A stretch of DNA of 64,000 bases from Candidatus Zambryskibacteria bacterium RIFOXYC1_FULL_39_10 (GCA_001824275.1 MHWW01000003.1:19325-83324), one strand, 5' to 3'; shown: positions 1-24,537, counted from the first letter of the stretch. The notes: generated by a model not told the origin, from the sequence alone. Numbers and translations are program-made.

Positions 1-1210
1 GTCTCCTCTTTTTTGTTTTATCCGAGATTTTCTTGACCACATGAAGCGGATAAAACTGATAATAATCTTTTTCATCAAACCAAGCGCAAACAAAATTGAA
101 TATTCGCAGTCCCGTGAGGCGTGACATAGCGAGTGCATACCATGTCAGCTGTTCAATTGGTTTTTCCTTACTAGCATTTGGTTTGTAATCAAGTAGATGT
201 ATTTGGCCGTTCCTGATTTGTACTATATCTATATGCCCGGTCAACAATTTCGGTAAATCAATCTCTTTACCACCTTTAAGCGTTATTTTTTTGTTATCGC
301 TTATTTTAAATTTTAATACATTTTCCATATGCTCCACATCTTCTCTCCTTATATACACCGGCACTTCGGTCGCGACTGTGCAAGAGTCGTTGGCAAGCAT
401 AAATCTTTGTAAATGTTCGTGACGCTCTTTGTTATCAGGAATTGATTGCAAGACGAACGCAGTCAAACGGTTGGCATAATTGAATTTTGAATTAACGATC
501 ATATCAGCCTTATCAAATTTACTGCGGATTTCTGACATTCTTTCACCATCTTGAAAATATTGATGGGGTGTTTCGCTAGAGACATTATCCAAATAACTTT
601 TGAGCGGTGATAAAACTCTATTTTTAAATTCATCCAACATCAAAATTGTTTTGGCTCGGTGGTAGCGGAAACGATAAAGCTGACGATGAGCCATAGTGGT
701 CACTTCAACGACATCTTTTGGGCCAAACATTTTAATCGCATAAGGCCGCAGTCTTTCATATCGGCAAAGTTCTTTGTATTCGTTTATCCAGTCTGATAGC
801 GTTGCTGGCTCCGGTGCTACGCCAAACTTTTGTTTTATAATTTTGCAAGTTTCTTCCAGTGTTAGCCCGAGATTATAATAACTCATTGATTCAATAATAA
901 TATGAAGTGGAAAATGTTTACCTTTTATATCCTGAGCTGTAAATGTCCTGCCACAACCAAAATTTCGGCAAAGATACAACTGCACTACCTGATTTTTATT
1001 TTTTCGGGTTCCTCTTTTAACAAAATTGGTTGACATACAATATGGACAAATTGAGGCATCACGAGCATTGCGAATTGTTTCTGTTTCTTCTCCTTTTTTA
1101 ACCTCACCCCCGTCCCCTCTCCTAGATGCAGGAGAGGGGGGAACAAAAATCCCCGTGATTTTGTCCCACATTTTTGTTATGCCGTTTTTTTGTGTTTTTT
1201 CGCTTGACAT
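1..1210 (-). CDS. Zn-ribbon + HTH protein with C-terminal PD-(D/E)xK-like nuclease motif; partial (3' end beyond window start); start uncertain (ATG at 1210, 1172 or 1036)
   Basis: A long open minus-strand frame runs off the window edge, which is why it is absent from the complete-ORF track. My translation contains a CPYC-x22-CRNFGC zinc ribbon resembling transposase-type Zn ribbons (IS1/IS1595-like), followed by an HTH-like segment. Further in is GHIDIV...IHLLDYK, which fits a PD...(D/E)xK core. The N-terminus MSSEKTQK is encoded by the 47-bp repeat shared with the next gene. Confidence 0.45.
   Translation of the reverse strand, partial: MSSEKTQKNGITKMWDKITGIFVPPSPASRRGDGGEVKKGEETETIRNARDASICPYCMSTNFVKRGTRKNKNQVVQLYLCRNFGCGRTFTAQDIKGKHFPLHIIIESMSYYNLGLTLEETCKIIKQKFGVAPEPATLSDWINEYKELCRYERLRPYAIKMFGPKDVVEVTTMAHRQLYRFRYHRAKTILMLDEFKNRVLSPLKSYLDNVSSETPHQYFQDGERMSEIRSKFDKADMIVNSKFNYANRLTAFVLQSIPDNKERHEHLQRFMLANDSCTVATEVPVYIRREDVEHMENVLKFKISDNKKITLKGGKEIDLPKLLTGHIDIVQIRNGQIHLLDYKPNASKEKPIEQLTWYALAMSRLTGLRIFNFVCAWFDEKDYYQFYPLHVVKKISDKTKKRR
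1104..1139. repeat. C-rich REP-like hairpin element (a): cacccccgt CCCCTCTCCT agatgc AGGAGAGGGG
   Basis: Perfect 10-bp inverted repeat preceded by a C5 tract. Same architecture as the elements at 2570-2606 and 24538-24573. Confidence 0.45.
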
Positions 1211-1231
1211 TGTGTTTTGATTTGCTATACT
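1184..1231 (+). repeat. 47-bp direct repeat, copy 1. Plus strand: TTGACA-16nt-TATACT sigma70-like promoter. Minus strand: encodes the MSSEKTQK N-terminal leader
   Basis: Identical to 1707-1753 (ttgtgttttttcgcttgacattgtgttttgatttgctatact). TTGACA is at 1204-1209 and TATACT at 1226-1231. Confidence 0.8.
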
Positions 1232-1292
1232 TAATTTATATTTGGGGTTACCCACGACTCCTGTCAGAAATGACAGGAGGTCTATTTTTTTC
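1204..1292 (+). promoter_or_regulatory. mini transcription unit 1: consensus promoter, then hairpin CCTGTCAgaaaTGACAGG, then T-run; antisense to the 3' end of the MazF-like gene
   Basis: -35 TTGACA and -10 TATACT with a 16-nt spacer. A 7-bp stem hairpin at 1261-1278 is followed by tctattttttt. Confidence 0.4.
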
Positions 1293-1757
1293 AGCAATAT
1301 TATGTAATTTAAAATACATATCTCTTATTATTTTTGAATCCTTCTCATCCAATTCTCCTATTTTTTCTTTGAATCTCCTATAGTCATAAACCCTTCCCTG
1401 AGATAAAACAACATTTTGATTAATCCCAATAAAAGTTATCGGAGCAAACCATGACCCAGTTTTTGGTTTAGTAGTAAGTGGTAATCCCAAAAAAGAATAT
1501 TTGTCATATTTTTTAAATACAAAAACCGGTCGAGTAAATTTTTGATCTTTACCATTTATTTCAACCCCAACATTTTCTCCAATATAAGACCACCATATTT
1601 CATTCTCTTTAAATAACGGCGGCAAAGATTCGTTGTTATGAATTTTCTCTTTCAAACCAATCCACGCCAAAAATCTTTTAATTATATTTTTTGGTTTTTG
1701 CATATTCTTTTGTGTTTTTTCGCTTGACATTGTGTTTTGATTTGCTATACTCATCAT
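1248..1757 (-). CDS. MazF/PemK-family toxin-like endoribonuclease with N-terminal extension (probable start at the in-frame ATG at 1730)
   Basis: Translation ENEIWW..GENVG.E..GK...RPVFVF...PLTTK......VVLSQGRVYDYRRF.EKIGELDEKD follows the Kid/PemK/MazF pattern (IWwv.lgp..G.E..k.RPvlV...v.PlTs.....q.R..D..Rl....g.l). The upstream GGAGGTG is 17 nt from ATGATG, so the SD and start choice are ambiguous. Confidence 0.6.
   Translation of the reverse strand: MMSIANQNTMSSEKTQKNMQKPKNIIKRFLAWIGLKEKIHNNESLPPLFKENEIWWSYIGENVGVEINGKDQKFTRPVFVFKKYDKYSFLGLPLTTKPKTGSWFAPITFIGINQNVVLSQGRVYDYRRFKEKIGELDEKDSKIIRDMYFKLHNIAEKNRPPVISDRSRG
1707..1753 (+). repeat. 47-bp direct repeat, copy 2 (same promoter-like motif; encodes the leader of the MazF-like gene)
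   Basis: Exact copy of 1184-1231. TTGACA is at 1724-1729 and TATACT at 1746-1751. Confidence 0.8.
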
Positions 1758-1810
1758 GTATCTTTAATGAATTACACCTCCTAAGGTTCTGTACTTAGGC
1801 GGTGTTTTTT
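1724..1810 (+). promoter_or_regulatory. mini transcription unit 2: same promoter, then hairpin CCTAAGgttctgtaCTTAGG, then T-run; antisense to the MazF-like 5' UTR/SD and the NYN 3' end
   Basis: Promoter at 1724-1751; hairpin at 1780-1799; cggtgttttttact follows. Confidence 0.4.
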
Positions 1811-2431
1811 ACTATTCACAGCCCCTCTTGACAAAGAATTTCTATCGTCTATAATGGATAGCACTGATATTCTCCCGGCCGCAAGGTCGGGAGTATTATT
1901 TTTCCTATTTAATTCGACAAATTCTCTTATCTTTTCAAGAATTAAATACTTTGTTTTCTTTAGTTCAAAAGCCAAATTACCCTTAAAACTAACGAAACGG
2001 ATATTTTTGTGCTGTTCTATAAAAACATATTTCCATAATTCAAAATAATCGCTATCTCCGCTGAAAACCATTACCTCATCCAAATTATTAAGACTTCTTA
2101 CAACATCTAAAGTTATTTCTATATCAACATTTCCTTTTTTCTGTCCATTTATATATTTAAGAGGCTTGGTTATCACTTTGGCAAATTTTTCTATAACATC
2201 AAGGTATTTCTTTGAATCGGCATAAGATGTATCGGTTTTTTCAGGTAAGGCGGCATAATAATTGAAAATCTTAACTTCAAAAATAGACCCAAAAAGTTTT
2301 TTCACTTTTTCTATGTCCAATTTCCAACCGGCTTTTTTAGACGCATAATATATATTGGCTCCATCAATAAATATTCCTATTTTCTTTTTTGCTCTATTGT
2401 TTTCCATTTTATTTTTGATGTCTCGTATCAC
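1781..2431 (-). CDS. NYN/LabA-like domain protein (PIN-like RNase fold)
   Basis: KKIGIFIDGANIYYA......VFSGDSDYFEL matches NYN (DUF88/LabA) signature residues. The ~50-aa C-terminal tail overlaps the plus-strand promoter/hairpin unit 3. Confidence 0.65.
   Translation of the reverse strand: MIRDIKNKMENNRAKKKIGIFIDGANIYYASKKAGWKLDIEKVKKLFGSIFEVKIFNYYAALPEKTDTSYADSKKYLDVIEKFAKVITKPLKYINGQKKGNVDIEITLDVVRSLNNLDEVMVFSGDSDYFELWKYVFIEQHKNIRFVSFKGNLAFELKKTKYLILEKIREFVELNRKNNTPDLAAGRISVLSIIDDRNSLSRGAVNSKKHRLSTEP
1828..1906 (+). promoter_or_regulatory. mini transcription unit 3: TTGACA-16nt-TATAAT, then hairpin CTCCCGGCCgcaagGGTCGGGAG, then T-run; antisense to the NYN gene 3' region
   Basis: TTGACA at 1828-1833 and TATAAT at 1850-1855. 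A 9-bp stem (one G-U pair) at 1872-1894 is followed by tattatttttcc. Confidence 0.4.
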
Positions 2432-2569: not shown

Positions 2570-2606
2570 CTAACTCCCCCTGCCCCCTCTTAAATTAAGA
2601 GGGGGT
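2570..2606. repeat. C-rich REP-like hairpin element (b): ctccccctg CCCCCTCTTAA a TTAAGAGGGGG, overlapping the giant gene stop codon
   Basis: Perfect 11+1+11 palindrome at 2584-2606, preceded by a C-rich tract. Confidence 0.5.
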
Positions 2607-5600
2607 TTCAGATGTCCCAGTACCGATATTGACATCTGTTGAAACTGTTTCCGATGCCGAAATTATTTCTGCTGGCGGAGTTACAATTTCTACTACCGGT
2701 TCAGCTGGCGCAGAAATTATTTCTACAACTGGTGGAATTATTATTACACTTTCAGAAGTTGTGCTTGCTGTTATTATTTCTGGTGTTGAGCTCCCCACTG
2801 CCGACGTTGCCTCTCCGTTGAGTTCATTCCCCATTACCGAAATTGTTGTCGTTGTTGTCGTTGTTTCTGATGTCGAAGTGGCTTGCGTTGTAACCCCGGC
2901 AACTTCGGGAGCGGAACGAATCAATTCTTTAAACTGCTCTTTGGTCACACAGACATCATCTACACAAACTTCTCCTTCAATATGCAAACTGCCCACAAAC
3001 AATTTTGTAATCTTAGTGAACTCATCCCCTATTTCCACCCCGACACCCTTTAAATAGACCACAATTCGCCCTAGGAGCGTTTCTTTACCATCCACGGCAA
3101 TGGTAGTCGTAGCGGACACATCATTCTCCAAATCTGCCATTTTTGCATTCAAAATTTCAAATTTAATTTCGCTATTACTTAAAAATTCAGCGGTTGAAGA
3201 AGCATACATTTCCTGTACCGATTTCACTTCCGCGATTTGTTTTTGTTGCTCTTGAATGGCGTTTACTAAAATAGGTGTGAGCTTACCATAGTCCACATTT
3301 GATGGTCGACCCTGTGCATCAAAACTAACTATCTCTGGAATTATTTTTGCCACATCTTCCGCAATAAATCCGACCTGTGAAGTTTGGTTATTGGGCATAA
3401 AACTTTCTTGCCAGTTGTAGGAAACCGGCTGGAGCTGTGCAATTTCGACCAAACCATAATTTAATGGGTTAACATTTTTCTTGAAACGGAGCGATGAACC
3501 TCCGCATTGAGTAGTTGAAGTCGCCAAGTTTCCTGTGGTCGTATTTGCACAAACAAAGTAGCCAGTGGACTCGTTGACGAGTGCCGGAAACATCACAGAA
3601 CCATTTACGGCTAATTTTGCACCAGGACTCGTCGTCCCGATGCCGACGTTGCCACTTCCTAATAATGTCAACACTGACCTTTGCACCGTTTCGCCATAAT
3701 TAACACGAAAATCTATAGAGTTGTTTGCCACACCTGAAGCATGATTTGTATATATACTATGATAATAAGTATCTGGGAAAGATGTTCTCGATAATCGCAA
3801 TACTTCTGCAAACGTGGCGTCTGCCCCACCATTTTCAATCGTAGTTATACCTTTAACATGCAACTTACTCACCGGTCCCGTCGTCCCGATGCCGACGTTG
3901 CCTAGTAAATAATTATTTCCAGTCCCATCTGACTTTAGTAAACCGTCGATTTGCAAATTACCGGATAAATCAACATATCCTTTTTCTCCTCCTAAATTGA
4001 ATGTTATATAGCTATCGGCATATAATTTAAGTTTGTTTGCTTCAGTGCCAGCAATATACGTTCCCGCATCAGTTGTATAATCAGGGTAGAATATTCCTCC
4101 ACCCCTAATATTTCCCGCCACATCCAGTAATGCCCCCGGACTCGTCGTCCCGATGCCGACGTTGCCAGCACTTGTTATTCTCACCTTTTCCGTTGGGACA
4201 CCACTATTAGAAGTATTGAAGATTAAATCGCTGTAATTTCCTCCTCCAATACTTTGCAATGCTTGTATCGAAGCAACTTCCTGATTGGTTAATGTTGAAT
4301 ATGAATTTCTAAAGTGTATACCGCCAATCTCATAGCCGTTCCCTGCCGGAAAAGCACTGATTGTCAACTGAACCGGTGTTGAAGCCGCACTACTTGAAAG
4401 ATGCAATTTACTCTGCGGACTCGTCGTCCCGATGCCGACGTTGCCACTATCTGTTACTAACACATTTGCCGTGCTCCCCGCAGCATTTACAAAAGCCAGA
4501 CCAGTGCTTCCAAGAGTGGAATACCCGATATATCCCTTAGATGTTCCTGCGTTTTTAAACTGTATAAACGCAGAACTCGCAGCAGCTGTGTCTTCAACAA
4601 TAACAGGCGTATTAGCTGCACCAGAAATATGTAACAATGCCCCCGGACTCGTCGTCCCGATGCCGATATTACCGGCGCTTGCAATGAACATTCTATTATC
4701 AACTCCTCCAGAACGAAATCCGATAGCACCACCACTTTCATAGAATCCACCCGTATCAGCACCATTACCACCAAACACTCCGAAATTAGTTTTGAAACGA
4801 ATACCCCCATTCACATCCAACTTCGCTCCTGGACTGCTTGTCCCAATTCCCACATTCCCGGAATTTTGTTGGACGATGAATTGTGAAGTACCGACAGCGA
4901 AGCCACCGGTTGAGATGGTGGAGGTTGCTGTAGTTGAAGTCGCATTGAAATTACCAAATGTTGGAGTGGAGGTAGCAACAATGACACCTGATGCGTTAGT
5001 AGAAAGTAGTGAATTGATTGCAAGACCAGAGAAAGTGAGGGAACCACCTGTAGTGATGTTTCCATTGTAATCAATTGTGAATTTAGAAGTTGAAGCAACT
5101 TTGAGATCTAATAGATTACCAGTGAAGCCAGTGATTGCATCTGCTCCTATGAGTGTTCCGGTTGAACCTACCACTGATAGTTTTGCCCATGGGGATGTAG
5201 TGCCTATCCCGACGTTGCCGGTCTGTTTTACATACAACAAGCTATTACTCGACTCATTCTCAACATTAAAATAACCAGAGGCTCCTGAAATTGTAGATTT
5301 GACATATCTCGAGTCAGATTGCAATGCTCCAATTTCAAAAACTTGTTTCAAGGCATTCCCACTCATAACATCAAAAGTGAAGGCACTTTCCATACTGCCC
5401 GTATTGACATCATTGGCAACCCAACTCATTCTATTAGATTCTCTTACATCATTAGCGGAATCGAGGTAGAAAGAGACATATGCCTCATCACCAGCAGTTG
5501 GTGTGGCTCGTTCATTTCCCTGCAACACCACAACAAGATTACTCGCAGCATCAGTAGTCTTACTAATATCAAGCAAAGCTCTCGGACTCGTCGTCCCGAT

Positions 5601-8600
5601 GCCGACGTTGCCACCAAGAGTTGCGAAGTAGGCAGAACCTGTGGAGGTGATAGCAGTAGTAGAAGCATACCCAAGAGTTGTTAGACCTGATACTGACATT
5701 GTCCCTGTTGCCGTAATGTTCGCTGCTGTGAGATTGCCATTGAAAAATCCGCTACCTGCTACACTCAACAATGCGAAGGGAGAGGTGGTGCCTATGCCGA
5801 CGTTGCCACCGTTCATTATTCTCATTGCCTCTGTCCCAGCTGGTGAAAAAGCAAAGTGATTCGCAGAAGCAGCACTTGAAGCCCAAGTCCACACCGAGCC
5901 AGAATTACTGAATGTGACAGTTGAGACGCCTGTTCTTTCAACAGTAAAGGTTGGTGAGGCCGCTGCAATGTGCAAAATTGATGTCGGACTCGTCGTACCG
6001 ATGCCGACGTTGCCAGTTGCTGCGGCAATTGTTAATCTAGTAGCTCCTACTGGTGCTACGGTATTATCATAAAAAAGAAAATTGTTATTTACGTCATTAA
6101 GCCCAAACGACCAAGTCTGACCGGGTTTATTAACTGAAATTTGACTAAAGCCGGTGTCGGATGCTGTGCTTATTGCAATTTTGGAGTAAAGTGGCCCTGC
6201 TACTTGCAGTAATTCAATCGGCGTCGCCGTCCCAATACCAACTTTTCCTGTTGAGAAGTCATAAACAAACCCTGTACCTCCGATTGCAAATCCTCCAGCA
6301 ATAGTTGAAGTCGCTGCAGTTGAAGTAGCGTTGAAGTTACCAAATGTTGGAGTTGAAGTAGCAACGATGACACCTGATGCGTTAGTAGAAAGAAGAGAAT
6401 TGATTGCGGCACCGGAGAGAGTGAGAGAACCTCCTGTGGTGATTGCTCCAGTGTAATCAATAGTGAATTTAGAAGTTGAAGCGACTTTCAAATCCAAAAG
6501 ATTGCCTGTAAAACCGGTCAGAGCGTCCGTGCCTATGACTGTTCCCGTCGTACTCAAATGTTCCACTGAAAGTTTGGCGTATGGTGAAGTCGTCCCGATG
6601 CCGACGTTGCCGGAACTTAAAATTCTCATCTTTTCACTAAAGGTTCCTGCTAACGTAGTAATGAAAGTAAGGTCTGCACTAACTGCATTAGCTACGTGAG
6701 AAGTAATTGTTGTGCCAATTTGGGTCGCAGGTTTGATGGCACTATTAGCATCAAAAGTATTAAATCGCAAACCTAGCCCGGTATTATCTGTGGTATTTGT
6801 GTTCATTAAATCAAAAACTGGGAAGCTACCGAAAGCAGTCTGAGCACTATTTGTTTGGAACAATCCACCTAAAGTATATTGGCTTGTATCTACTACATTT
6901 AGTTTATAGCTGGGACTGGTCGTCCCGATGCCGACGTTGCCGGCAAAGTAGGAGTTGCCTGTGCCGAGGACACTTAAGTTTTGAGCAATAGTGGTTGAGG
7001 CGTTAATGGTTAAGGTTTGAAGGCTTGGTGTGGCATTAAACATTCCATAAAGTAAAGCTCCTGCTTTATCTCCGCTGGTGTTTTCGCGGTCTTGGTTGTC
7101 TATGTAAAAAGAATTGGAACCAAGTTCGTATGCACCCGCATACATTCCAAACATTACATTACTATTTCCAAATAGATTATATCCTGCTTTATATCCTACG
7201 ACTGTGTTGTATGAATATGGAGTAGACCCACCATAACCAACTTTTGAACCAATAAGAGTATTTTGTATAAAGACACCAGTACCACTAAAACCAGCACCCC
7301 TCCCAATCGCTGTGTTGTCAGAACCTGTGGTGTTCGCATAGAGAGAAGAATCTCCAATCGCTGTGTTGTCGTTTCCTGTGATGTTGGAGTAGAGAGAACC
7401 ATATCCAATCGCTATGTTGGAGTTTCCTGTGGTGTCGGAGTAGAGAGAAAAAGATCCATTCGCTGTGTTGTAGGCTCCTGTGGTGTTGGAGTAGAGAGAA
7501 TGAGATCCATTCGCTGTGTTGGAGTTTCCTGTGGTGTTGGAGAAGAGAGATTGATAGCCATTCGCTGTATTGTAGGAACCTTTCCAAGTAGCACCTACTT
7601 GACCCACACTACTTTGTCCTCCTCCACCAATAAAGAGATTATCACCCTCTGAATTAGCACCTTTGTAAGTAGAGAATAAAGCATTTGTACCATTAGTATT
7701 TATATTTATATTCCCCGCAACATCTAATTTCTGGCTGGGACTGGTCGTCCCGATGCCGACGTTGCCGGCAAAGTAGGAGTTGCCTGTGCCGAGGACACTT
7801 AAGTTTTGAGCAATGGTGGTTGAGGCGTTAATGGTTAAGGTTTGAAGGCTTGGTGTGGCATTAAACATTCCATAAAGTAAAGCTCCTGCTTTATCTCCGT
7901 TGGTGTTTTCGCGGTCTTGGTTGTCTATGTAAAAAGAATTGGAACCGAGTTCATACATTCCTGCACTAGTTCCAAGAGCGACATTGTTTGATCCAGTTTC
8001 GTTTAACATAAGAGATTGCGCACCAATTGCGACATTGCTATCACCCGTAGTATTTAACATGAGAGAAGCCACACCAAAAGCGCTATTGATACCGCCTGTA
8101 GTATTAGACATGAGAGATTTTTCACCATTTGCTGTATTAGAGAAACCTGTAGTGTTGTATTTAAGAGCTCGACTACCTATACCCGTGTTCCAATATCCCG
8201 CATCAACATTATCGGTTGGTTGACTAAAGCCGGCTTGTTTTCCAATATAAAGATTTCCAGCATTATAATTAGCATCATCCGGATCACTCGCAAAGATTCT
8301 CAACATCTCCGTACCCGCCGCATCTTTTATAAAAATGCCGGAATTAGCTGGGGTGTAGTTACCGGGTGAGCCGTTGGTAGTGATAGTTAAAGGTGAGGTA
8401 TTAGAATCTCGGTTATCTATAGTCAGTTTGGCTGAAGGCGTCGTCGTCCCGATGCCGACGTTGCCTGTCGCTCTCCAAACACTTGTACCATCAGTTGTCC
8501 AATTCCCCACACCCGCACCAGCAATCAAAGAACCGTTCCAATAAAGATCACTTGAAGTATTGTAGAGACGGGAATAAGTATCGGCAGGAGAAGACGATTC

Positions 8601-9845
8601 AATATACAAAGCCCCATCTAAAGTCAGAATATCTTGTCGAGTGGTGGTGCCAACGGCCAGCCATTCTGTGGCCGTAAGATCAGCAACTGTCGTTGAACCG
8701 GTGACAGTCAAATCACCAGTCGAAAATGAAAGGCCAATGGCAGTTTGAAAATCAGAAAGGTCATTACTTACATTTGATATGGAATTGCCAAAATTATTTA
8801 CGATCGTGTCATTCTGTCTGGTCACATAATATCTATTTACATTTGGCGCTAACGGATTGACTAGAAAATAATTTTTTAATTCTGCAATTTTAAAATCTAC
8901 ATATTCTCTGTCAGAATCCATCACTACAACTGTTCTAGCTTGCGATGGTGTTTTATTATTTTGATTTATAACTATTTCTTGATTATTTTCTTTGTTAACT
9001 AAAACTGATTCATCTTTCCTCAACCAAGGTTTAATTATTTTAAGAGCAACATTTTTTGTCCAATTAGTTACATCATTCCATCCATTAGCAGAAAAGATAG
9101 AAGCAAAATTATTTTCTCCTAAAGCTACTTTATTATTAATGTTACTAATACCAGATTCAAAAACAAGAGAAGTCTTAACTATTATTCTTTCTTTAAGAGA
9201 AGCTAGTTTTTTAATCTCGGAAAAATTAAAAGCAATGCTAAAAGTCAACAAAATTATGACAGAAATTGAAGCGGCTGAGATTGCAAACTTTTCGAAACCA
9301 GACTTCCTTTTTGATCTCTCAATTACTTCATCAATGTTGGCAGAAGCGTAATATCTAATTTTATCTATATCAAACTCCCTTTTAATAATTGGAAATAATT
9401 CCTTTTTATCGTTATAATATATAGGTTTTATTCCTCTTACATCTCGGATACTCGAGATACGAGGTTTAAGACCTTTTTTCTCTGAAAATATTACTTCATT
9501 TTTATCTATTCCAATTCCTAATTCAAGCTCAGATTTAGCTTTAGATTTTTTCAGTATCTTCGTCTCTTTTTCCTTATTTTTTAAATCTGGTTTTAATGTT
9601 TTTAAGATTGCAACTTCCCTTCTTGATTTACGAATTTTAAGAGTCTTCCTGTGGGTAAGTAAATTTTTATCCTTGTGATTCAAAATTTCACTCTCCAAAA
9701 CATACCAACTTCTACCAACCAAGCTTGCATGAATTTTTTTAGCTCTACAAAGTTGGCCAATGTAGTCACTAGCATAACCAGTAAGTTCAGCGGCACGACT
9801 TGCCGAGATGTATTTTTTACCCTTCAAATAGAGAGTCTTATTCAC
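2595..9845 (-). CDS. giant (2416 aa) tail-fibre-like surface protein. Domains: N-terminal excisionase-type HTH, single TM helix, Gly/Thr/Asn-rich beta-repeat region, C-terminal peptidase S74 intramolecular chaperone (tail-fibre autoprocessing) domain, Thr/Pro-rich tail
   Basis: N-terminus SASRAAELTGYASDYIGQLCRAKKI...GRSWYV is HTH_17-like. The TM helix is FAISAASISVIILLTFSIAFNF at ~aa 190-212. The decapeptide GNVGIGTTSP recurs more than 20 times. C-terminus SSLRFKKNVNPLNYGLVEIAQLQPVSYNWQ...VGFIAEDVAKIIPEIV...VDYGKLTPILVNAIQEQ matches the endosialidase-chaperone/tail-fibre C-terminal domain. Start-codon placement at the 5' end is uncertain. Confidence 0.8.
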   Translation of the reverse strand: MNKTLYLKGKKYISASRAAELTGYASDYIGQLCRAKKIHASLVGRSWYVLESEILNHKDKNLLTHRKTLKIRKSRREVAILKTLKPDLKNKEKETKILKKSKAKSELELGIGIDKNEVIFSEKKGLKPRISSIRDVRGIKPIYYNDKKELFPIIKREFDIDKIRYYASANIDEVIERSKRKSGFEKFAISAASISVIILLTFSIAFNFSEIKKLASLKERIIVKTSLVFESGISNINNKVALGENNFASIFSANGWNDVTNWTKNVALKIIKPWLRKDESVLVNKENNQEIVINQNNKTPSQARTVVVMDSDREYVDFKIAELKNYFLVNPLAPNVNRYYVTRQNDTIVNNFGNSISNVSNDLSDFQTAIGLSFSTGDLTVTGSTTVADLTATEWLAVGTTTRQDILTLDGALYIESSSPADTYSRLYNTSSDLYWNGSLIAGAGVGNWTTDGTSVWRATGNVGIGTTTPSAKLTIDNRDSNTSPLTITTNGSPGNYTPANSGIFIKDAAGTEMLRIFASDPDDANYNAGNLYIGKQAGFSQPTDNVDAGYWNTGIGSRALKYNTTGFSNTANGEKSLMSNTTGGINSAFGVASLMLNTTGDSNVAIGAQSLMLNETGSNNVALGTSAGMYELGSNSFYIDNQDRENTNGDKAGALLYGMFNATPSLQTLTINASTTIAQNLSVLGTGNSYFAGNVGIGTTSPSQKLDVAGNININTNGTNALFSTYKGANSEGDNLFIGGGGQSSVGQVGATWKGSYNTANGYQSLFSNTTGNSNTANGSHSLYSNTTGAYNTANGSFSLYSDTTGNSNIAIGYGSLYSNITGNDNTAIGDSSLYANTTGSDNTAIGRGAGFSGTGVFIQNTLIGSKVGYGGSTPYSYNTVVGYKAGYNLFGNSNVMFGMYAGAYELGSNSFYIDNQDRENTSGDKAGALLYGMFNATPSLQTLTINASTTIAQNLSVLGTGNSYFAGNVGIGTTSPSYKLNVVDTSQYTLGGLFQTNSAQTAFGSFPVFDLMNTNTTDNTGLGLRFNTFDANSAIKPATQIGTTITSHVANAVSADLTFITTLAGTFSEKMRILSSGNVGIGTTSPYAKLSVEHLSTTGTVIGTDALTGFTGNLLDLKVASTSKFTIDYTGAITTGGSLTLSGAAINSLLSTNASGVIVATSTPTFGNFNATSTAATSTIAGGFAIGGTGFVYDFSTGKVGIGTATPIELLQVAGPLYSKIAISTASDTGFSQISVNKPGQTWSFGLNDVNNNFLFYDNTVAPVGATRLTIAAATGNVGIGTTSPTSILHIAAASPTFTVERTGVSTVTFSNSGSVWTWASSAASANHFAFSPAGTEAMRIMNGGNVGIGTTSPFALLSVAGSGFFNGNLTAANITATGTMSVSGLTTLGYASTTAITSTGSAYFATLGGNVGIGTTSPRALLDISKTTDAASNLVVVLQGNERATPTAGDEAYVSFYLDSANDVRESNRMSWVANDVNTGSMESAFTFDVMSGNALKQVFEIGALQSDSRYVKSTISGASGYFNVENESSNSLLYVKQTGNVGIGTTSPWAKLSVVGSTGTLIGADAITGFTGNLLDLKVASTSKFTIDYNGNITTGGSLTFSGLAINSLLSTNASGVIVATSTPTFGNFNATSTTATSTISTGGFAVGTSQFIVQQNSGNVGIGTSSPGAKLDVNGGIRFKTNFGVFGGNGADTGGFYESGGAIGFRSGGVDNRMFIASAGNIGIGTTSPGALLHISGAANTPVIVEDTAAASSAFIQFKNAGTSKGYIGYSTLGSTGLAFVNAAGSTANVLVTDSGNVGIGTTSPQSKLHLSSSAASTPVQLTISAFPAGNGYEIGGIHFRNSYSTLTNQEVASIQALQSIGGGNYSDLIFNTSNSGVPTEKVRITSAGNVGIGTTSPGALLDVAGNIRGGGIFYPDYTTDAGTYIAGTEANKLKLYADSYITFNLGGEKGYVDLSGNLQIDGLLKSDGTGNNYLLGNVGIGTTGPVSKLHVKGITTIENGGADATFAEVLRLSRTSFPDTYYHSIYTNHASGVANNSIDFRVNYGETVQRSVLTLLGSGNVGIGTTSPGAKLAVNGSVMFPALVNESTGYFVCANTTTGNLATSTTQCGGSSLRFKKNVNPLNYGLVEIAQLQPVSYNWQESFMPNNQTSQVGFIAEDVAKIIPEIVSFDAQGRPSNVDYGKLTPILVNAIQEQQKQIAEVKSVQEMYASSTAEFLSNSEIKFEILNAKMADLENDVSATTTIAVDGKETLLGRIVVYLKGVGVEIGDEFTKITKLFVGSLHIEGEVCVDDVCVTKEQFKELIRSAPEVAGVTTQATSTSETTTTTTTISVMGNELNGEATSAVGSSTPEIITASTTSESVIIIPPVVEIISAPAEPVVEIVTPPAEIISASETVSTDVNIGTGTSETPS
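6911..7137. repeat. ~230-bp near-identical duplicate (copy A) within the giant gene
   Basis: About 98% identical to 7734-7960. Both encode ...YELGSNSFYIDNQDRENT.GDKAGALLYGMFNATPSLQTLTINASTTIAQNLSVLGTGNSYFAGNVGIGTTSPS. Confidence 0.8.
7303..7610. repeat. intragenic tandem repeat, 51-bp period x6 (17-aa units NTANGSxSLYSNTTGxx) inside the giant gene
   Basis: ccaatcgctgtgttg... recurs at 7303, 7354, 7405, 7456, 7507 and 7558. Confidence 0.8.
7734..7960. repeat. ~230-bp near-identical duplicate (copy B) within the giant gene
   Basis: See copy A at 6911-7137. A more diverged ~250-bp pair lies at ~4905-5160 and ~6290-6545. Confidence 0.8.
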
Positions 9846-9860
9846 AGGTATATTATACTA

Positions 9861-9878
9861 TCTCGGCTATCCGAGATG
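9861..9878. promoter_or_regulatory. inverted repeat ATCTCGG-ctat-CCGAGAT immediately upstream of the giant gene start; candidate operator
   Basis: 7-bp arms. A related palindrome atctcggatactcgagat sits at 9443-9460 inside the coding region. Confidence 0.3.
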
Positions 9879-9890
9879 AATAAAAAACCT

Positions 9891-9899
9891 GTGGATAAA
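9891..9899 (-). promoter_or_regulatory. perfect DnaA-box 9-mer (TTATCCACA on the minus strand)
   Basis: tgtggataa on the plus strand. Confidence 0.5.
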
Positions 9900-10097: not shown

Positions 10098-10106
10098 GTT
10101 ATCCAC
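10098..10106 (+). promoter_or_regulatory. perfect DnaA-box 9-mer TTATCCACA (context AGTTATCCACA)
   Basis: Exact match to the canonical consensus. Confidence 0.5.
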
Positions 10107-10196
10107 ATTATTAAAGTTACATAACTATTCATAATTATGTATACTTAAGTAGTAATGTTTATATATGTTTACTAATGTTAATAATTTAATTATACT

Positions 10197-10457
10197 ATGA
10201 ACAATAAAACTATCAGCTATATAACAATTAAAGACGCATCTGTTATATTAGGTGTATCCAAGATCACTCTTCGCAATTGGGACAAGTCCGGTAAGCTCAA
10301 AGCTCACCGACATCCCTTTAATAACTACCGAGTCTACAAACTTGAGGATATTGACAATGTCTTAAAAATGATTGAGAGTAACAATACTGTTATTTCTAAG
10401 AGGAAAAGTGAGATTCGTAGGTTGGCAGTCCGCCACCTCGAAGATGAGCGGGCTTAG
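10197..10457 (+). CDS. excisionase/MerR-type HTH_17 DNA-binding protein (86 aa)
   Basis: ITIKDASVILGVSKITLRNWDKSGKLKAHRHPFNNYRVYKLEDID fits the HTH_17 pattern. Confidence 0.65.
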   Translation: MNNKTISYITIKDASVILGVSKITLRNWDKSGKLKAHRHPFNNYRVYKLEDIDNVLKMIESNNTVISKRKSEIRRLAVRHLEDERA

Positions 10458-10937: not shown

Positions 10938-10946
10938 TTATCCACA
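10938..10946 (+). promoter_or_regulatory. perfect DnaA-box 9-mer TTATCCACA (context AGTTATCCACA), abutting the 10895-10934 palindrome
   Basis: Exact match. Confidence 0.5.
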
Positions 10947-10989: not shown

Positions 10990-11643
10990 ATGAGATACGA
11001 AAACTTTGCTGTACACGAACACTATCATGTCTTTGGTAGAGGCACTAACAAGGAAAAGATATTTATAGATGATCAAGATAAAGCGAGATTTGTTTTTCTT
11101 ATTACCCATTTTCAATCCCCTATTAAGGTCTACAATGTATCCTGGTATACAGACAGTTTTATTAAGAAAGGTTTTTTTGGTATTAAGGAGGGCAAGATTG
11201 ATGAAATACTTAAACATCGAAGCACCAAACTTGTCGCCTTTGCTTTAATGGAAAATCACTTTCATCTATTAATACAAAATCTTGAAGATGGAATACTCTC
11301 GGTTTATATGCACCGAGTTTTAACTGCTTATAGTAAATATTTTAACGCTAAATATAAAAAGAAGGGCCATGTTTTTGAAGGACCTTTCAAAGCCGTGCAC
11401 ACTAAAAATAATGACCAATTATTACACTTGGCTTCATATATCCACAAGAATCCAAGGGAGATTGAGGGTTGGGATTCTTCATACGACAAGTACCCCTATT
11501 CAAGCTATCAAGACTATATTGGTTTAAACAGGTGGGGAAACTTCCTTTCAACCGATATTATCTTAAAGCAATTTAAGGACCAAACTAAATATAAGGATTT
11601 TGTCTCAACTAGTACCGCAAAAGAAGGCTTAAATTACCTTTAG
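10990..11643 (+). CDS. REP-associated tyrosine transposase (RAYT; IS200/IS605-like Y1 HuH transposase)
   Basis: YHVFGRGTNKEKIF.DDQDK..F; HuH motif ENHFHLLIQ; ...GHVFEGPFKAV...; catalytic-Tyr region LLHLASYIHKNP. Together these match the RAYT/TnpA_REP pattern. The 3' end overlaps gatB convergently by 15 nt. Confidence 0.8.
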   Translation: MRYENFAVHEHYHVFGRGTNKEKIFIDDQDKARFVFLITHFQSPIKVYNVSWYTDSFIKKGFFGIKEGKIDEILKHRSTKLVAFALMENHFHLLIQNLEDGILSVYMHRVLTAYSKYFNAKYKKKGHVFEGPFKAVHTKNNDQLLHLASYIHKNPREIEGWDSSYDKYPYSSYQDYIGLNRWGNFLSTDIILKQFKDQTKYKDFVSTSTAKEGLNYL

Positions 11644-13056
11644 AAATAAGTCTTTTAGGACATTTGGGTTTGCCGAACCTTTGGTTTCTTTCATTCCTTG
11701 CCCGATTAAAAACTGGAGAGCTGAGAGCTTGCCATTTTTGTATTCTGCCACCGCCGCTTCGTTTTCTGACACTATTTTATTTACTATTTTTATTAGATCA
11801 TCTTCATTACTTTTCTGAAATAACCCTTCTCTTTCTGCAATTATTTTAGGCTCCTCGCCAGTTTCAAGCATTATTTTCAATACATCTTTGGCTCCTCGAG
11901 AAGATAGTTCCCCAGACACAATCATTTTAACCACAGTAGCAACTGACTCAGTTTTAACCATTGAGACATCAGGGTTTAGGCTTGCAATATCGCTCACAAT
12001 ATAATTTGAAAGCAGTTGTAGCTCACTCTTATCTAACAAAACCGCAGTCTCTTCAAACAAATCGCCAAGTCCAATATTTGTAATATAAAAATTAATATCA
12101 CTTTCTTTGATGCCATATTTGCTACCAAACCTTTCTCTCTTTTCTTTCGGTGTCTCCCTAAGCTCACTTCTTAATACATCTGCATCAAATTCAGGGACTT
12201 CACTTATTTTTAATTTGGGCAAATCAGGGTCTGGGAAATACCTGTAATCGTGAGAATCTTCTTTGGATCGCTGGGAAAATGTTACCTGTTTCTTGTCGTC
12301 CCAACCTCTGGTCTCTTGAGATATTTTGCCTCCCTCTTTTAGTATCTCCACCTGTCTAGTAATCTCAAATTCTATAGCTCTTTCTGCTGATCTAAATGAG
12401 TTTAAATTTTTAATCTCAACTTTAGTACCCAAGGTCAGACCTTTGGGGCCTTTTTCAAGGTCTGACCTTTGGACCGAAATATTAACCTCAAGCCTCATTT
12501 CTCCTTTCTCCATATTAGCTTCCGCTACGCCTAAGTATTGAAGTTGAAGTTGCAACTCTTCTCCAAATTTAACAACCTCAACAGACGAATGGATTACAGG
12601 TTCGGTCACCAATTCCATAAGTGGCACTCCTGCTCGGTTGAAATCAACAAGGCTATGGTCTCCTACCTCGTGAGAGGACCTTGCCGTATCCTCTTCAAGA
12701 TGGACCCGAGTAATGCTCACGCCCGACAGTTGTCCACCTGAGACTAGCGGATGCTTATACTGGCTTATCTGATAACCTTTTGGTATGTCAGGATAAAAGT
12801 AATTTTTTCGATCAAATTCGGTGAAATCAGCCAGTTTCGCCCCTATTGATAAACCGACTTTTAACACATTTCTTACCGCTTCTTTGTTGATTACTGGCAA
12901 GGTACCAGGGTGTCCTATACAAACCGGGCATACATTTATGTTTGGCCTTTTCTCGTCTGCATCATTTTTACATGAGCAAAACATCTTAGTTTTTGTCTTC
13001 AATTCCGCGTGAATTTCAAGACCTATGGTTGGTTTCCAATTTATATCTTTTGCCAT
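11629..13056 (-). CDS. gatB: aspartyl/glutamyl-tRNA(Asn/Gln) amidotransferase subunit B
   Basis: INWKPTIGLEIHAEL...CPVCIGHPGTLPV...RKNYFYPD is the characteristic GatB N-terminus; full length is 475 aa. Confidence 0.93.
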   Translation of the reverse strand: MAKDINWKPTIGLEIHAELKTKTKMFCSCKNDADEKRPNINVCPVCIGHPGTLPVINKEAVRNVLKVGLSIGAKLADFTEFDRKNYFYPDIPKGYQISQYKHPLVSGGQLSGVSITRVHLEEDTARSSHEVGDHSLVDFNRAGVPLMELVTEPVIHSSVEVVKFGEELQLQLQYLGVAEANMEKGEMRLEVNISVQRSDLEKGPKGLTLGTKVEIKNLNSFRSAERAIEFEITRQVEILKEGGKISQETRGWDDKKQVTFSQRSKEDSHDYRYFPDPDLPKLKISEVPEFDADVLRSELRETPKEKRERFGSKYGIKESDINFYITNIGLGDLFEETAVLLDKSELQLLSNYIVSDIASLNPDVSMVKTESVATVVKMIVSGELSSRGAKDVLKIMLETGEEPKIIAEREGLFQKSNEDDLIKIVNKIVSENEAAVAEYKNGKLSALQFLIGQGMKETKGSANPNVLKDLFLKVI

Positions 13057-23937: not shown

Positions 23938-24251
23938 AACGGGCTTATACTAACATATTTTTCGACTTTTTTCTAAACAAAAATCCCGCTTGAGAGCGGA
24001 ATCTTTGTTAAGTGGGAAAAGTGCGATTAAGCTCTTTTCTTCTTTGTAGCAACTTTCTTCTTTGCTACTTTTTTCTTCTTTGCTGGCATTTTATTTTATT
24101 CCTTTCCTTTGTTAAAACTAGGGATTGGAATGAGATTATTTTTAAGCGCGCTTGTTCCGATGAAAATTTTTTTAAAATTTTTTCGGAGCGATCGACCTGT
24201 ATTAATTATCGCTCTAAAAAATATTTAAGTAAATATTTTTTTCATCAAATG

Positions 24252-24260
24252 TGTGGATAA
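24252..24260 (-). promoter_or_regulatory. perfect DnaA-box 9-mer (minus-strand context AGTTATCCACA) in the secA-upstream intergenic region
   Basis: tgtggataa on the plus strand. AT-rich ~30-bp direct repeats follow at 24281-24400. Confidence 0.5.
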
Positions 24261-24401
24261 CTGAAAAAACTTTTTTTGAAAAGTTTTTTAATTTTTAATT
24301 TACAATTTTTAATTTTTAATAAATGTCTAAATTTTAAATTAGGAAATTGAAACATTGAAAATTATTTGAAAATTTTAAATTAGAAATTGAAAATTAAAAA
24401 A

Positions 24402-24425
24402 TTCCGACATGTCGGAATTTTTTAT
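24402..24425. terminator. bidirectional rho-independent terminator: A-run, TTCCGACATGTCGGAA, T6
   Basis: A palindromic GC-containing stem flanked by A- and T-runs, downstream of the minus-strand gene 24709-26928. Confidence 0.55.
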
Positions 24426-24433
24426 GCGTTGTC

Positions 24434-24496: not shown

Positions 24497-24537
24497 CGCA
24501 ACACATATTAATAATATATCATTTCGATAATTTTATC

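Follow-up and report, generated by a model that had tools for sequence, protein, structure and literature searches.

A giant Patescibacteria protein combining a predicted winged helix-turn-helix, a single membrane anchor and a phage-tail-fibre-like ectodomain with an S74 chaperone domain

The stretch of DNA analysed here (the window) comprises 64,000 nucleotides of the genome of Candidatus Zambryskibacteria bacterium RIFOXYC1_FULL_39_10. As first annotated, it contains a 7.25-kb gene at 2595..9845 (-), stop codon included, which forms one uninterrupted ORF with a GTG start and encodes a protein of 2,416 aa. The same contig is deposited at NCBI as DAIMIE010000001.1 (GCA_036722915.1); its protein P0154 is identical to the giant protein, and the deposited annotation calls it 6 codons shorter, at 2,410 aa. 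The longer start, at 9845, is supported because an ATG or GTG codon and the residues M-[ND]-K-x-L are kept where this position falls in 16 close orthologous loci. The GC3 of the gene equals that of its neighbours, which include NYN, MazF-like, MerR-like, IS200-like, gatB, GH15, GH57, GT4 and secA genes; no phage structural gene cluster was found among them. The gatB gene (11629..13056 (-); Pfam GatB_N and GatB_Yqey), the syntenic anchor used below, is encoded on the same strand 1.8 kb upstream, separated from the giant gene by the MerR-like gene and an IS200-like insertion. No GC-skew switch or other origin signature was found in the window.

Residues 1-60 (9666..9845 (-)), predicted to be cytoplasmic, are modelled as an excisionase/MerR-like (HTH_17) winged helix-turn-helix (HTH), a fold that is strongly supported by prediction and by relatives. 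The AF2 model has a pLDDT of 93-98 and the topology b-b-a-a-b-b, its helices spanning aa 15-22 and 26-34 and its strands aa 40-43 and 46-50 (HTH plus beta-hairpin wing). The Foldseek top matches are all Xis, BldC, RacA, TraN, RdfS or MerR-type DNA-binding domains, the best PDB matches being Xis 4j2n, BldC 6ama, RacA 5i44, TraN and RdfS, with TM-scores of 0.67-0.71 on the target and rmsd of 1.7-1.9 A at an E-value of only about 0.1, the domain being small. The HTH_17-like N-terminus of the first-pass annotation thus stands as a fold, but not by its own Pfam score, which stays under the cut-off of 27 bits (17 bits for the whole protein, 24 bits for the isolated 71 aa); 47 of 49 relatives match HTH_17 at E<=0.1, the best at E=3.3e-8, so that profile support across the family is weak to moderate. 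In family alignments Y24, D27, Y28, G30, Q31, L32, C33 and R34 are invariant; whether G44, R45 and W47 are fully or only nearly invariant varies with the alignment. The resulting signature, Y-x-x-DY[IV]GQLCR...GR-x-W, is present in the giant protein with all invariant residues, and the predicted recognition-helix and wing residues Y28, Q31, R34, R45 and W47 are (near-)invariant across the family. Xis of mycobacteriophage Pukovnik, BldC, RdfS and the RacA N-domain share the predicted fold of aa 1-60; these proteins are soluble, whereas the family HTH has an invariant signature of its own and is tethered to the membrane by a TM helix, to which a 100-250-aa linker connects it.

A Lys/Arg-rich cytoplasmic linker follows (aa 61-183; 9297..9665 (-)). 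AF2 models a long helix at aa 51-97 and disorder at aa 101-137 in this region, and a motif Y-x-x-D-x-x-[EP]-L-x-P is conserved around aa 143-152. The TM helix placed at about 190 aa by the first reading is confirmed as a single hydrophobic peak at aa 184-210 (9216..9296 (-)), the sole Kyte-Doolittle peak above 1.9 in the 2,416-aa protein, and AF2 predicts a helix over aa 183-205. A positive-inside bias is found across the family (K+R 3.3 on the N-side vs 1.3 on the C-side; N>C in 61 of 76 proteins). Hydropathy and charge bias are the basis of the predicted type-II topology, i.e. a signal anchor with the N-terminus inside and the C-terminus outside. The juxtamembrane base region comprises aa 211-480 (8406..9215 (-)) and is the last section of the protein to be collinear with orthologs; in BLASTP, collinearity with orthologous loci stops at aa 350-524.

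The following tail-fibre-like shaft and tip (aa 481-2116; 3498..8405 (-)) are built from modules, 62-275 aa in length, that each bear the mark GN[VI]GIGTTSPxxKL. More than 20 repeats of GNVGIGTTSP had been counted at first; the motif does recur, but as 15 copies of G[NK][VI]GIGT, 10 of them exact GNVGIGTTSP, and not as a tandem array. The GN[VI]GIGT copies mark module boundaries, not tandem decapeptides, because they lie 62-275 aa apart. The only true tandem array in the gene is a 51-nt (17-aa) unit, NTANGxxSLYSNTTGxx, present in 4 copies inside the shaft (7303..7575 (-)). An 825-bp segmental duplication is located at 6895..7975 (-), its 256-nt ends being 93% identical, and a 91% identical variant of the protein (P0155) is without one duplication copy (the 275-aa block at aa 694-968); assembly may thus have influenced the exact repeat content. 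A composition count agrees with the Gly/Thr/Asn-rich ectodomain described earlier and adds Ser and Ala.

The shaft is matched by the PHROG tail fibre/tail spike families 9942, 18345 and 4636 (E=1e-46 to 2.5e-24), the tail spike match of phrog_4636 covering the tandem-repeat zone (aa 698-927). In tblastn, annotated phage distal tail fibres align with about 90% of a 560-aa probe at 24-33% identity. Foldseek and HMMER also gave matches to the Bdellovibrio MAT fibres 8onb, 8onf, 8ond and 8oml; the local structural matches have probability 1.0 and rmsd 1.9-2.5 A over only 48-49 columns of a monomer model, and the HMMER alignments to 8oml are motif-level. Taken together, homology of the approximately 2,200 extracellular residues to phage tail fibres and Bdellovibrio MAT fibres is strongly supported.

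A complete Peptidase_S74 intramolecular chaperone/self-cleaving domain near the C-terminal end (aa 2117-2245; 3111..3497 (-)), with a Ser2117/Lys2122 dyad, is strongly supported as well. Over aa 2117-2173 the Pfam profile PF13884 scores 45.4 bits (cut-off 22) at E=1e-11. The dyad (S-x-x-x-x-K) is invariant in a 75-sequence alignment, and the predicted cut lies before Ser2117 in GG|SSLRFKKNV. The tail-fibre S74 assignment made at first is therefore upheld by its Pfam score, although the motif, given as SDxRxKKNI, reads SSLRFKKNV, with Ser and Lys kept. The AF2 monomer model has a pLDDT mostly of 90-98 and shows a 60-residue helix after a small beta/alpha core. Its best Foldseek match is the MyRF ICA 7dc3 (E=2.4e-5); endoNF 3gw6 and phi29 gp12 3gud were also found. 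Profile and structure prediction at the two ends, which the first-pass annotation had proposed as checks, thus gave a winged HTH at the N-terminus and, at the C-terminus, an S74 domain above cut-off with a confident fold. Behind it lies a tail of aa 2246-2416 (2595..3110 (-)) with a small Cys-containing hairpin and helix (aa ~2287-2312), then a disordered Thr/Val/Glu/Pro-rich segment. The tail had been called Thr/Pro-rich; it is Thr-rich, but by composition count Thr, Val, Glu and Ile are the enriched residues. It is also present in P0034 (45% identity, 86% coverage).

The overall layout of HTH, TM anchor, fibre-like ectodomain and S74 domain thus stands as first described, the repeat count and the HTH_17 score being corrected. 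For this unusual anchor, the idea of a one-off fusion is not supported: a large Patescibacteria family has the HTH-TM module as its conserved core. This family, which is defined here by the HTH signature, one TM helix 100-300 aa further along the chain and a gene position downstream of gatB, includes the giant protein, which has the signature, the TM helix at aa 184-210 and gatB upstream. It has 6,033 cluster representatives, with 498 relatives in GTDB species genomes; the closest relatives are labelled Zambryskibacteria and Paceibacterota. Locus counts refer to 80 loci that were kept, nearly all with Patescibacteria-type labels; gatB is in the upstream flank in 72 of them, and the position of the family gene is fixed near gatB, obg and secA. 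The shortest ectodomains have about 20 aa and the longest more than 2,200 aa, the short forms consisting of HTH, linker and TM helix and nothing else. It is strongly supported that the family is specific to Patescibacteria and has a fixed place downstream of gatB, with HTH, linker and TM helix as the conserved core, and equally that the fibre or ectodomain is its variable part, mosaic and hypervariable. Among 120 giant homologs, HTH and TM helix were found in 34 and the S74 domain too in 21. A true start past the HTH, for example through a frameshift, had been named as what would overturn the first reading; a frameshifted or chimeric ORF is excluded because HTH, TM helix and S74 domain occur together in at least 21 independent giant homologs.

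The promoter region carries elements that are conserved with the gene. A TATAAT -10 box (9852..9857 (-)) is located 6 nt upstream of the GTG start, and the mRNA would probably be leaderless or nearly so; no canonical -35 was called at this promoter. Abutting the -10 box upstream is a candidate operator, the inverted repeat ATCTCGG-ATAG-CCGAGAT (9860..9877 (-)). The same layout, ATCTCGG-N4-CCGAGAT followed by TATAAT, occurs at 13 orthologous loci, and the candidate operator is kept among loci whose proteins share only 35-72% identity. Of the 80 loci, 43 have a CCGAGAT arm in the 70 nt that precede the family gene. These stretches add up to 0.75% of the sequence but contain 38% of all occurrences on the sense strand, and the enrichment is gene-specific. 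A half-site in sense orientation, ATCTCGG, lies within the CDS at codons Ile13-Ser14-Ala15 (9803..9809 (-)) and is conserved in its nucleotides: 67 of 80 loci use TCG as the Ser codon (9.8% background), and 52 of the 65 loci having Ile there use ATC (27.6% background). In the B-type paralog, recognition helix and palindrome both differ. A TTATCCACA box, identical to the DnaA-box consensus, is located 32 nt upstream of the -10 box (9890..9898 (-)).

The divergently transcribed neighbour (10197..10457 (+)) encodes an 86-aa MerR-type winged-HTH protein (Pfam MerR E=1.8e-9, above the cut-off), the closest PDB entry being 3qao, a MerR-like regulator. It had been described as a homologous standalone HTH_17 gene 350 bp upstream; a MerR/HTH_17 gene is present 351 bp from the giant-gene start, but on the opposite strand, and the homology was not borne out. 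No pairwise similarity between its HTH and the N-terminal HTH was detectable (BLASTP E=22); any relationship between the two is thus at superfamily level at best. In 46 of 80 loci an ortholog of this MerR-type gene (E=1e-18 to 1e-43) separates gatB from the family gene. The CCGAGAT motif is equally frequent with and without this neighbour (28/46 vs 19/34, p=0.82), whereas the full palindrome occurs only at loci with the divergent MerR-like gene (13/46 vs 0/34, p=4e-4), which fits the neighbour as the operator-binding protein.

The composite reading that we moderately favour is a type-II-anchored, S74-matured trimeric surface fibre, probably serving host contact, whose HTH may bind its own operator. 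Its parts differ in strength: the anchored S74 fibre is very probable, and the autoregulation step is put forward only tentatively. By what is established for the S74 proteins endosialidase, T5 pb1 and Bd3182, the gene product would be a homotrimeric surface fibre on the Patescibacteria cell, N-in/C-out, in which the S74 domain would drive trimer folding and then self-cleave before Ser2117. The post-S74 tail would depart together with the cleaved chaperone, and the mature fibre (aa 1-2116) would stay TM-anchored with its distal tip newly exposed.

The nearest known systems are the mosaic adhesive trimeric (MAT) fibres of Bdellovibrio bacteriovorus, with an S74 subgroup (e.g. Bd3182) (Caulton et al. 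2024, PMC10769870), for whose S74-type members autoproteolysis and surface display were shown by experiment (PMC10769870). Like the giant protein, they are chromosomally encoded, phage-tail-fibre-like proteins of the cell surface with an S74 chaperone/protease at the C-terminus, mosaic variable distal parts and V-G-x-G-x-x-x-P-x-x-K/L loop motifs recurring in the shaft, which is beta-helical in MAT fibres and would be so in the giant protein; the bacteria that carry them, too, live on other bacteria. The giant protein differs by its cytoplasmic winged HTH, basic linker and TM anchor, is about 2-3x longer and comes from a different phylum. Membership of MAT in the strict sense was rejected, the N-terminus being HTH-linker-TM and not a signal peptide with a beta-rich domain of ~130 aa. 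Phage fibres and tailspikes (K1F endosialidase 3gw6, phi29 gp12 3gud) share the S74 fold with the Ser-Lys dyad directly after the trimeric fibre. T5 pb1 (4uw8), another S74-chaperone phage fibre (PMC10769870), was not among the structural matches obtained here. Unlike phage fibres, the giant protein has a membrane anchor in place of a baseplate or tail attachment domain and about 170 extra residues past the chaperone, and lies outside any phage or prophage. The adhesin for host-cell attachment proposed at first remains the most reasonable reading, by homology to phage tail fibres and MAT fibres (PMC10769870); by analogy, the mature fibre would most likely serve this episymbiont-type bacterium in contacting its host or partner cell.

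The earlier suggestion that processing is coupled to a membrane-tethered regulator is not supported. The cut at Ser2117 is about 1,900 residues past the TM helix and on the other side of the membrane; S74 cleavage cannot free the HTH because it removes only the C-terminal chaperone, across the membrane from the HTH. S74 cleavage and HTH function are on opposite membrane sides and mechanistically uncoupled. To our knowledge, only one characterised protein unites a DNA-binding domain (DBD), an S74/ICA domain and a TM helix in a single chain: the eukaryotic membrane-bound transcription factor MyRF (myelin regulatory factor). Its order is DBD, S74, TM, and cleavage frees a trimeric DBD; in the order HTH, TM, fibre, S74 of the giant protein, cleavage would be extracellular and leave the HTH in place. 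MyRF-type release was rejected, as the TM helix at aa 184-210 separates the HTH (aa 1-60) from the S74 domain (aa 2117 onward), and the DNA-binding domains are unrelated (Ndt80-type in MyRF, excisionase/MerR-type here).

The part played by the HTH is where other explanations compete. Unlikely, though the best of these, is that the HTH no longer binds DNA and has become a protein-interaction or positioning module, as the HTH of RodZ binds MreB, while the 86-aa MerR-type protein binds the operator and regulates the fibre gene. The sub-threshold HTH_17 score, the conservation of an above-cut-off MerR-like divergent neighbour and the restriction of the full palindrome to its loci agree with this, as does the placement of the full inverted repeat between the -35 and -10 positions, the classic MerR-operator geometry. 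Against it, CCGAGAT and the ATC-TCG codon constraint remain in the 34 loci without a MerR-like gene, the (near-)invariance of Y28, Q31, R34, R45 and W47 is as expected of nucleic-acid contact, and the 86-aa protein is without the MerR dimerisation helix.

Improbable is a membrane-tethered one-component regulator (ToxR/CadC-like, or RIP-released), in which a fibre that engages a host cell, or clusters on it, would alter HTH activity and start a host-contact programme. The protein has the order of bitopic one-component regulators (DNA-binding domain, TM, extracellular domain), the S74 fold would bring three HTH domains together, and Patescibacteria cells are very small, so that a tethered domain could plausibly reach the nucleoid. 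RodZ, ToxR and CadC likewise combine a cytoplasmic DNA-binding-type domain, one TM helix and an extracytoplasmic domain, but their HTH is XRE-type (RodZ) or an OmpR-type winged helix (ToxR, CadC), they have no fibre or S74 domain, and no sequence relationship of the giant protein to these three was detected. Many family members, however, have an extracellular tail of only ~20 aa, unable to sense the outside; no further intergenic copy of the candidate operator was found in the 64-kb window; and we know of no precedent for a signal that travels down a fibre of 1,900 residues and on through a single TM helix.

Very improbable is that the HTH-TM core tethers the chromosome to the membrane (RacA-DivIVA-like), placing this region at the envelope, with the fibre as a secondary fusion on a fixed membrane site. 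RacA 5i44 is among the best structural matches (Foldseek probability 0.9), the chromosomal position near gatB, obg and secA is fixed, TTATCCACA boxes are clustered at the locus, and the short forms have only HTH, linker and TM helix; yet the sites form no array and lie only at the gene's own promoter, the window is without an origin signature, and linker length and charge vary across family members. An artefact or phage gene, i.e. a prophage tail fibre or an HTH-fibre chimera made by frameshift or misassembly, is effectively refuted: despite the phage homology of the shaft, the IS200-like transposase, excisionase-like HTH, NYN and MazF-like genes nearby and the variant assembly differing by one 275-aa block, the neighbours are gatB, glycoside hydrolases and secA with no phage structural genes, GC3 is like that of the neighbours, no relatives of the anchor were found in IMG/VR (2.9 million viral contigs), the NCBI record calls the same 2,410-aa product, and dozens of independent assemblies contain the same fusion, with 25-57% identity.

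In the favoured reading of an anchored, S74-matured surface fibre, the cytoplasmic HTH would bind DNA, as the conservation of the cis-elements suggests, its likeliest target being the CCGAGAT operator at the gene's own -10 box together with ATCTCGG at codons 13-15. If the HTH does bind its own operator, transcription of the gene would respond, by feedback, to how many anchors are inserted in the membrane.

The giant gene is an uninterrupted ORF of 2,416 codons on the minus strand (2595..9845) with a GTG start. In the deposited annotation of the same contig (DAIMIE010000001.1, 134 kb, in GCA_036722915.1) the product is six residues shorter (2,410 aa); the longer start is preferred because sixteen close orthologous loci retain both an initiation codon and the residues M-[ND]-K-x-L at the position matching 9845. 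The four parts named in the first-pass annotation (HTH, TM helix, repeats and S74 domain) were all found. Its count of more than 20 GNVGIGTTSP repeats was too high: G[NK][VI]GIGT occurs 15 times and the exact decapeptide 10 times. The motif copies are spaced 62-275 aa apart and therefore mark module boundaries rather than forming a tandem decapeptide. At the DNA level the gene contains a 51-nt tandem unit in four copies, an 825-bp duplication and a second pair of 253-nt repeats. A YadA-head identity for the 17-aa repeats found no Pfam support in the giant protein. Repeat number may vary by strain or assembly, since P0155, a 91% identical protein from a second public assembly, lacks exactly one 275-aa block (aa 694-968, window 6895-7975). 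This block is flanked by 256-nt repeats that are 93% identical, and the difference reflects either strain-level gain or loss of a module or a repeat collapse in one assembly.

Structures were predicted as monomers throughout. The AF2 model of the anchor, built on an alignment of 33 homologs, shows for aa 1-60 (pLDDT 93-98) a beta hairpin, a helix-turn-helix and a beta-hairpin wing, followed by a long helix. Every one of the best PDB matches of this segment is a small excisionase/MerR-like DNA-binding domain (Pukovnik Xis, BldC, RacA, TraN, RdfS and GlnR), with TM-scores on the target of 0.67-0.71, an rmsd of 1.7-1.9 A and E values of only about 0.1 because the domain is small. Neither a single-sequence nor a profile search of the PDB with the HTH returned anything useful. 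HTH_17 (aa 15-56) scores 17 bits on the whole protein, below the Pfam cut-off of 27, and is matched by 47 of 49 family N-termini scanned singly (best E=3e-8); beyond such weak HTH_17 matches, no Pfam or NCBIfam family covers the HTH-TM anchor. A single hydrophobic peak spans aa 184-210, with an AF2 helix at aa 183-205. In 76 family proteins the 15 residues beside the TM helix hold 3.3 Lys plus Arg on the N-side versus 1.3 on the C-side, the N-side being richer in 61 of them, a charge pattern that supports an N-in orientation of the anchor. In several relatives (P0162, P0256, P0275, P0279, P0281 and others) the TM helix is preceded by a tandem N-terminal HTH pair or by about 100 aa of additional sequence.

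The shaft, which spans the central 1,600 residues, has PHROG matches to tail-fibre and tail-spike families (E=1e-46 to 2.5e-24). It is 24-33% identical to proteins annotated as distal tail fibres in Thermus, Synechococcus, Pelagibacter and Roseobacter phages, with about 90% of a 560-aa probe aligned. With HMMER, the motif GNVGIGTTSPxAKL aligns to GNVGVGVGAPTAKM in Bd1334 (8oml), one of the Bdellovibrio mosaic adhesive trimeric (MAT) fibres; Caulton et al. (PMC10769870) report that such capping loops recur on MAT beta-helices and in MyRF, and that MAT fibres self-cleave at S74 and are displayed on the surface. Peptidase_S74 was identified above its Pfam cut-off at aa 2117-2173 (E=1e-11). Ser2117 and Lys2122, in the local sequence GG|SSLRFKKNV, are invariant in an alignment of 75 sequences, and the AF2 model has pLDDT values mostly of 90-98 from this dyad through a 60-residue helix. 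Its best PDB matches are the MyRF ICA domain (7dc3, E=2.4e-5), the intramolecular chaperones of endosialidase (3gw6) and phi29 gp12 (3gud) and, from Bdellovibrio, four structures of MAT fibres. The domain is therefore assigned to S74 by its profile, its catalytic residues and its fold alike; autoproteolysis itself is predicted. The approximately 170 residues after the chaperone comprise a small Cys-containing hairpin and helix and then a disordered tail rich in Thr, Val, Glu and Pro.

Relatives of the anchor were collected with the peptide DY[IV]GQLCR[AEG] from one genome per GTDB species, which gave 498 relatives, and 80 loci were kept, with deposited taxon labels that are almost all of Patescibacteria type. 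The relatives of the N-terminal region all come from Patescibacteria MAGs, and the closest among the fetched loci include Zambryskibacteria MAGs (59-72% identity). A single TM helix follows the HTH after 100-300 residues in 76 of the 80 loci, and the ectodomain can be as short as about 20 aa, in proteins that total 240-350 aa, or exceed 2,200 aa. Searched with a profile, 1.84 billion cluster representatives yielded 6,033 proteins at E<=1e-3, of which 1,632 reached E<=1e-30; the match lay nearly always at the extreme N-terminus. Of the best 120 full-length homologs of the giant protein, 34 begin with the HTH-TM module, 21 of these having S74 at the other end as well; the homologs without the module have ordinary signal peptides. 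Collinearity with the orthologs ends at aa 350-524, with only repeat-level patches beyond; the anchor and base are thus the conserved parts, and the shaft and tip form a mosaic. At the locus closest in N-terminal identity (72%; CAWJAC010000005.1, 5986-6453) the ORF ends after 155 aa, before the TM helix, and may reflect a pseudogene, a frameshift or a fault in the assembly. The searchable literature yielded no account of HTH-anchored S74 fibres, of the gatB-linked locus or of the operator in Patescibacteria.

The window has about 35% GC and the character of an ordinary bacterial chromosome, with gatB, secA, GH15, GH57, GT4, a Wzy-like ligase and hisF/hisH-like genes; no Rfam family matched anywhere in it. 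Genes for NYN, MazF-like and PD-(D/E)XK-like proteins lie downstream of the giant gene, and upstream, before gatB, lie the divergent 86-aa MerR-type gene (10197..10457, +) and an IS200-like Y1 transposase; none of these flanking genes is a phage structural gene. An artefact or a prophage gene is effectively excluded as the source of the giant protein, a frameshifted or chimeric ORF by the same fusion in many independent assemblies and in the deposited annotation, and a prophage tail fibre by the absence of flanking phage genes, a GC3 (0.338) equal to that of the neighbour genes and the lack of any anchor relative in 2.9 million viral contigs.

The upstream flank holds gatB at 72 of the 80 family loci. 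Of the 38 short-form loci analysed as a subset, 36 have gatB directly before the family gene, and obg and secA lie beyond it. An ortholog of the MerR-type neighbour (E=1e-18 to 1e-43) lies divergently between gatB and the family gene at 46 of the 80 loci, which makes the neighbour a conserved partner. The standalone HTH gene reported earlier thus stands as a syntenic partner; its homology to the N-terminal HTH was rejected, as the two have no pairwise similarity. At 22 loci of another subgroup, a short A-type gene precedes a long B-type paralog that begins with an HTH-TM module of its own.

The free-standing NYN-domain gene (1781-2431, minus strand) is separated by 163 bp from the end of the giant gene. 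A close relative of its NYN domain is nested in an intein, between the Intein_splicing/Hint halves, in the homologous giant fibre proteins P0157 (aa 628-948) and P0205 (aa 1145-1479; E=4e-38), at the position usually occupied by a homing endonuclease. This suggests a mobile NYN nuclease that targets fibre genes, free-standing or intein-borne. A 169-aa ORF (1248-1757, minus strand) matches a PHROG MazF-like growth inhibitor (E=1e-11) and overlaps an ORF of at least 441 aa (2-1324, minus strand) with a weak PD-(D/E)XK nuclease match; a weak PemK_toxin gene follows just past the latter in the deposited record, and a small toxin/defence islet may adjoin the fibre gene. The IS200-like gene (Y1_Tnp, 217 aa; 10990-11643, plus strand), between gatB and the MerR-like gene, overlaps the 3' end of gatB by 15 nt on the opposite strand. 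It is missing from most orthologous loci and therefore looks like a lineage-specific insertion.

The promoter of the giant gene consists, on the minus strand, of a TTATCCACA box (9898-9890), 12 nt, the inverted repeat ATCTCGG-ATAG-CCGAGAT (9877-9860), AG, a TATAAT -10 box (9857-9852), ATACCT and the GTG at 9845; no canonical -35 was called upstream of the gene. Orthologous loci share this layout even at a protein identity of only 35-72%. The fetched loci total 743 kb and contain 113 sense-strand copies of CCGAGAT, of which 43 fall within the 70 nt upstream of a family gene, a space that makes up 0.75% of the sequence; only one of the other copies is followed by a -10-like box. A general promoter element was rejected for this reason, the combination being almost confined to the family gene. 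TATAAT lies only 6-8 nt from the start codon in 16 loci, several with a GTG start, and about 17-24 nt upstream of ATG in two other subgroups; the short distance suggests that the giant-gene mRNA is leaderless. Within the coding sequence, the conserved Tyr-Ile-Ser (aa 12-14) uses ATC-TCG far above the expectation from codon usage (TCG for Ser in 67 of 80 loci against a background of 9.8%; ATC in 52 of the 65 loci with Ile there against 27.6%), which points to a second, nucleotide-constrained half-site, ATCTCGG, at 9809-9803 (minus strand). Alternative hairpins between this half-site and the upstream CCGAGAT, acting as an RNA switch, are unlikely, because the upstream arm precedes the -10 box and a leaderless mRNA would not include it; nor does covariation hold in locus L014 or in Kaiserbacteria-type loci. 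B-type paralogs have the recognition helix DYLARLAR where A-type proteins have DYIGQLCR, and a different palindrome, TTCGG-N-TATCCGAC, that abuts the ATG.

The perfect DnaA-box word TTATCCACA has four copies in the 64 kb, at 9890-9898 (minus), 10099-10107 (plus), 10938-10946 (plus) and 24252-24260 (minus). Three are at the giant-gene locus, upstream of the giant, MerR-like and IS200-like genes, a clustering on which a general promoter element was rejected; a replication origin was rejected because the window has no GC-skew switch. At the IS200-like gene the order is TTATCCACA, 26 nt, TATAAT, 7 nt and ATG. The fourth copy faces secA from a 770-bp region upstream of it (23938-24708) with no ORF above 82 aa and no Rfam match. 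In the 743 kb of orthologous loci the word occurs 89 times versus about 6.6 for shuffled words, mostly 50-70 nt upstream of ORF starts, B-type paralogs included; it may be a site for DnaA or for a factor specific to these loci. The degenerate form TTATCC[AC]CA is 13-fold over-represented in family loci, with 85 of 111 copies 25-140 nt before an ORF start.

In the proposed mechanism, the protein would insert N-in, C-out through its internal signal-anchor helix, and folding of three chains, starting at the C-terminal S74 chaperone, would produce a trimeric shaft of tail-fibre type. The chaperone would then cut itself before Ser2117, so that aa 2117-2416 leave, post-S74 tail included, and the mature fibre would stay tethered by its TM helices with a new tip exposed for contact with a partner cell. 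The homology behind the insertion, trimer-folding and self-cut steps is shown; the chemistry of the S74 steps is extrapolated from characterised S74 proteins. A MyRF-like release of the HTH by S74 cleavage was rejected on domain order. This is the decisive difference from MyRF: in the giant protein the TM helix lies between S74 and HTH, so cleavage cannot free the HTH.

The three cytoplasmic winged-HTH domains would bind DNA at the conserved operator of their own gene; this autoregulation of the giant gene by the anchor HTH is the favoured reading but is put forward tentatively, as possible rather than probable. The main rival holds that the operator is bound by the 86-aa MerR-type neighbour and that the anchor HTH has another role. 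The full palindrome occurs only where the MerR-like gene is present (13 of 46 loci versus 0 of 34, p=4e-4), and the CCGAGAT element is about as frequent in loci without that gene (19 of 34) as with it (28 of 46, p=0.82), these and the other motif statistics across loci being uncorrected for phylogeny. Readings in which the anchor HTH would signal contact or tether the nucleoid are less likely.

Phage S74 tail fibres and Bdellovibrio MAT fibres are homologous to the giant ectodomain and share its way of working. The giant protein is not a member of the MAT family because the defining N-terminal domain is replaced. The HTH-linker-TM proteins form an undescribed, Patescibacteria-wide family of about 6,000 cluster representatives that occupies a fixed slot downstream of gatB. 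On a broader and more doubtful reading, its members would be operator-autoregulating, membrane-tethered DNA-binding proteins that have repeatedly captured phage-tail-fibre ectodomains. If this is true, a single polypeptide in the giant forms would physically join a host-contact fibre of roughly 100 nm (extrapolated at about 0.7 A per residue from the Bd3182 model, PMC10769870) to the DNA and gene expression of the cell itself, a device for counting or for reporting contact that would be unprecedented among bacteria. A winged HTH with a gene-specific operator makes for a testable idea, that of a surface fibre regulating, or being counted by, its own promoter.

A conserved anchor combined with a hypervariable tail-fibre-like ectodomain is what one would expect from a host-range determinant; phage receptor-binding proteins and the MAT fibres of Bdellovibrio offer parallels. 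Patescibacteria account for much of bacterial diversity. To our knowledge, all cultivated members live attached to host cells, and how hosts are recognized and held outside Saccharibacteria is largely unknown. The locus is a concrete and widely conserved candidate for host recognition and attachment, easily located downstream of gatB. The HTH-TM module provides a search handle for surface proteins across thousands of uncultured genomes, and the family-level observation deserves follow-up.
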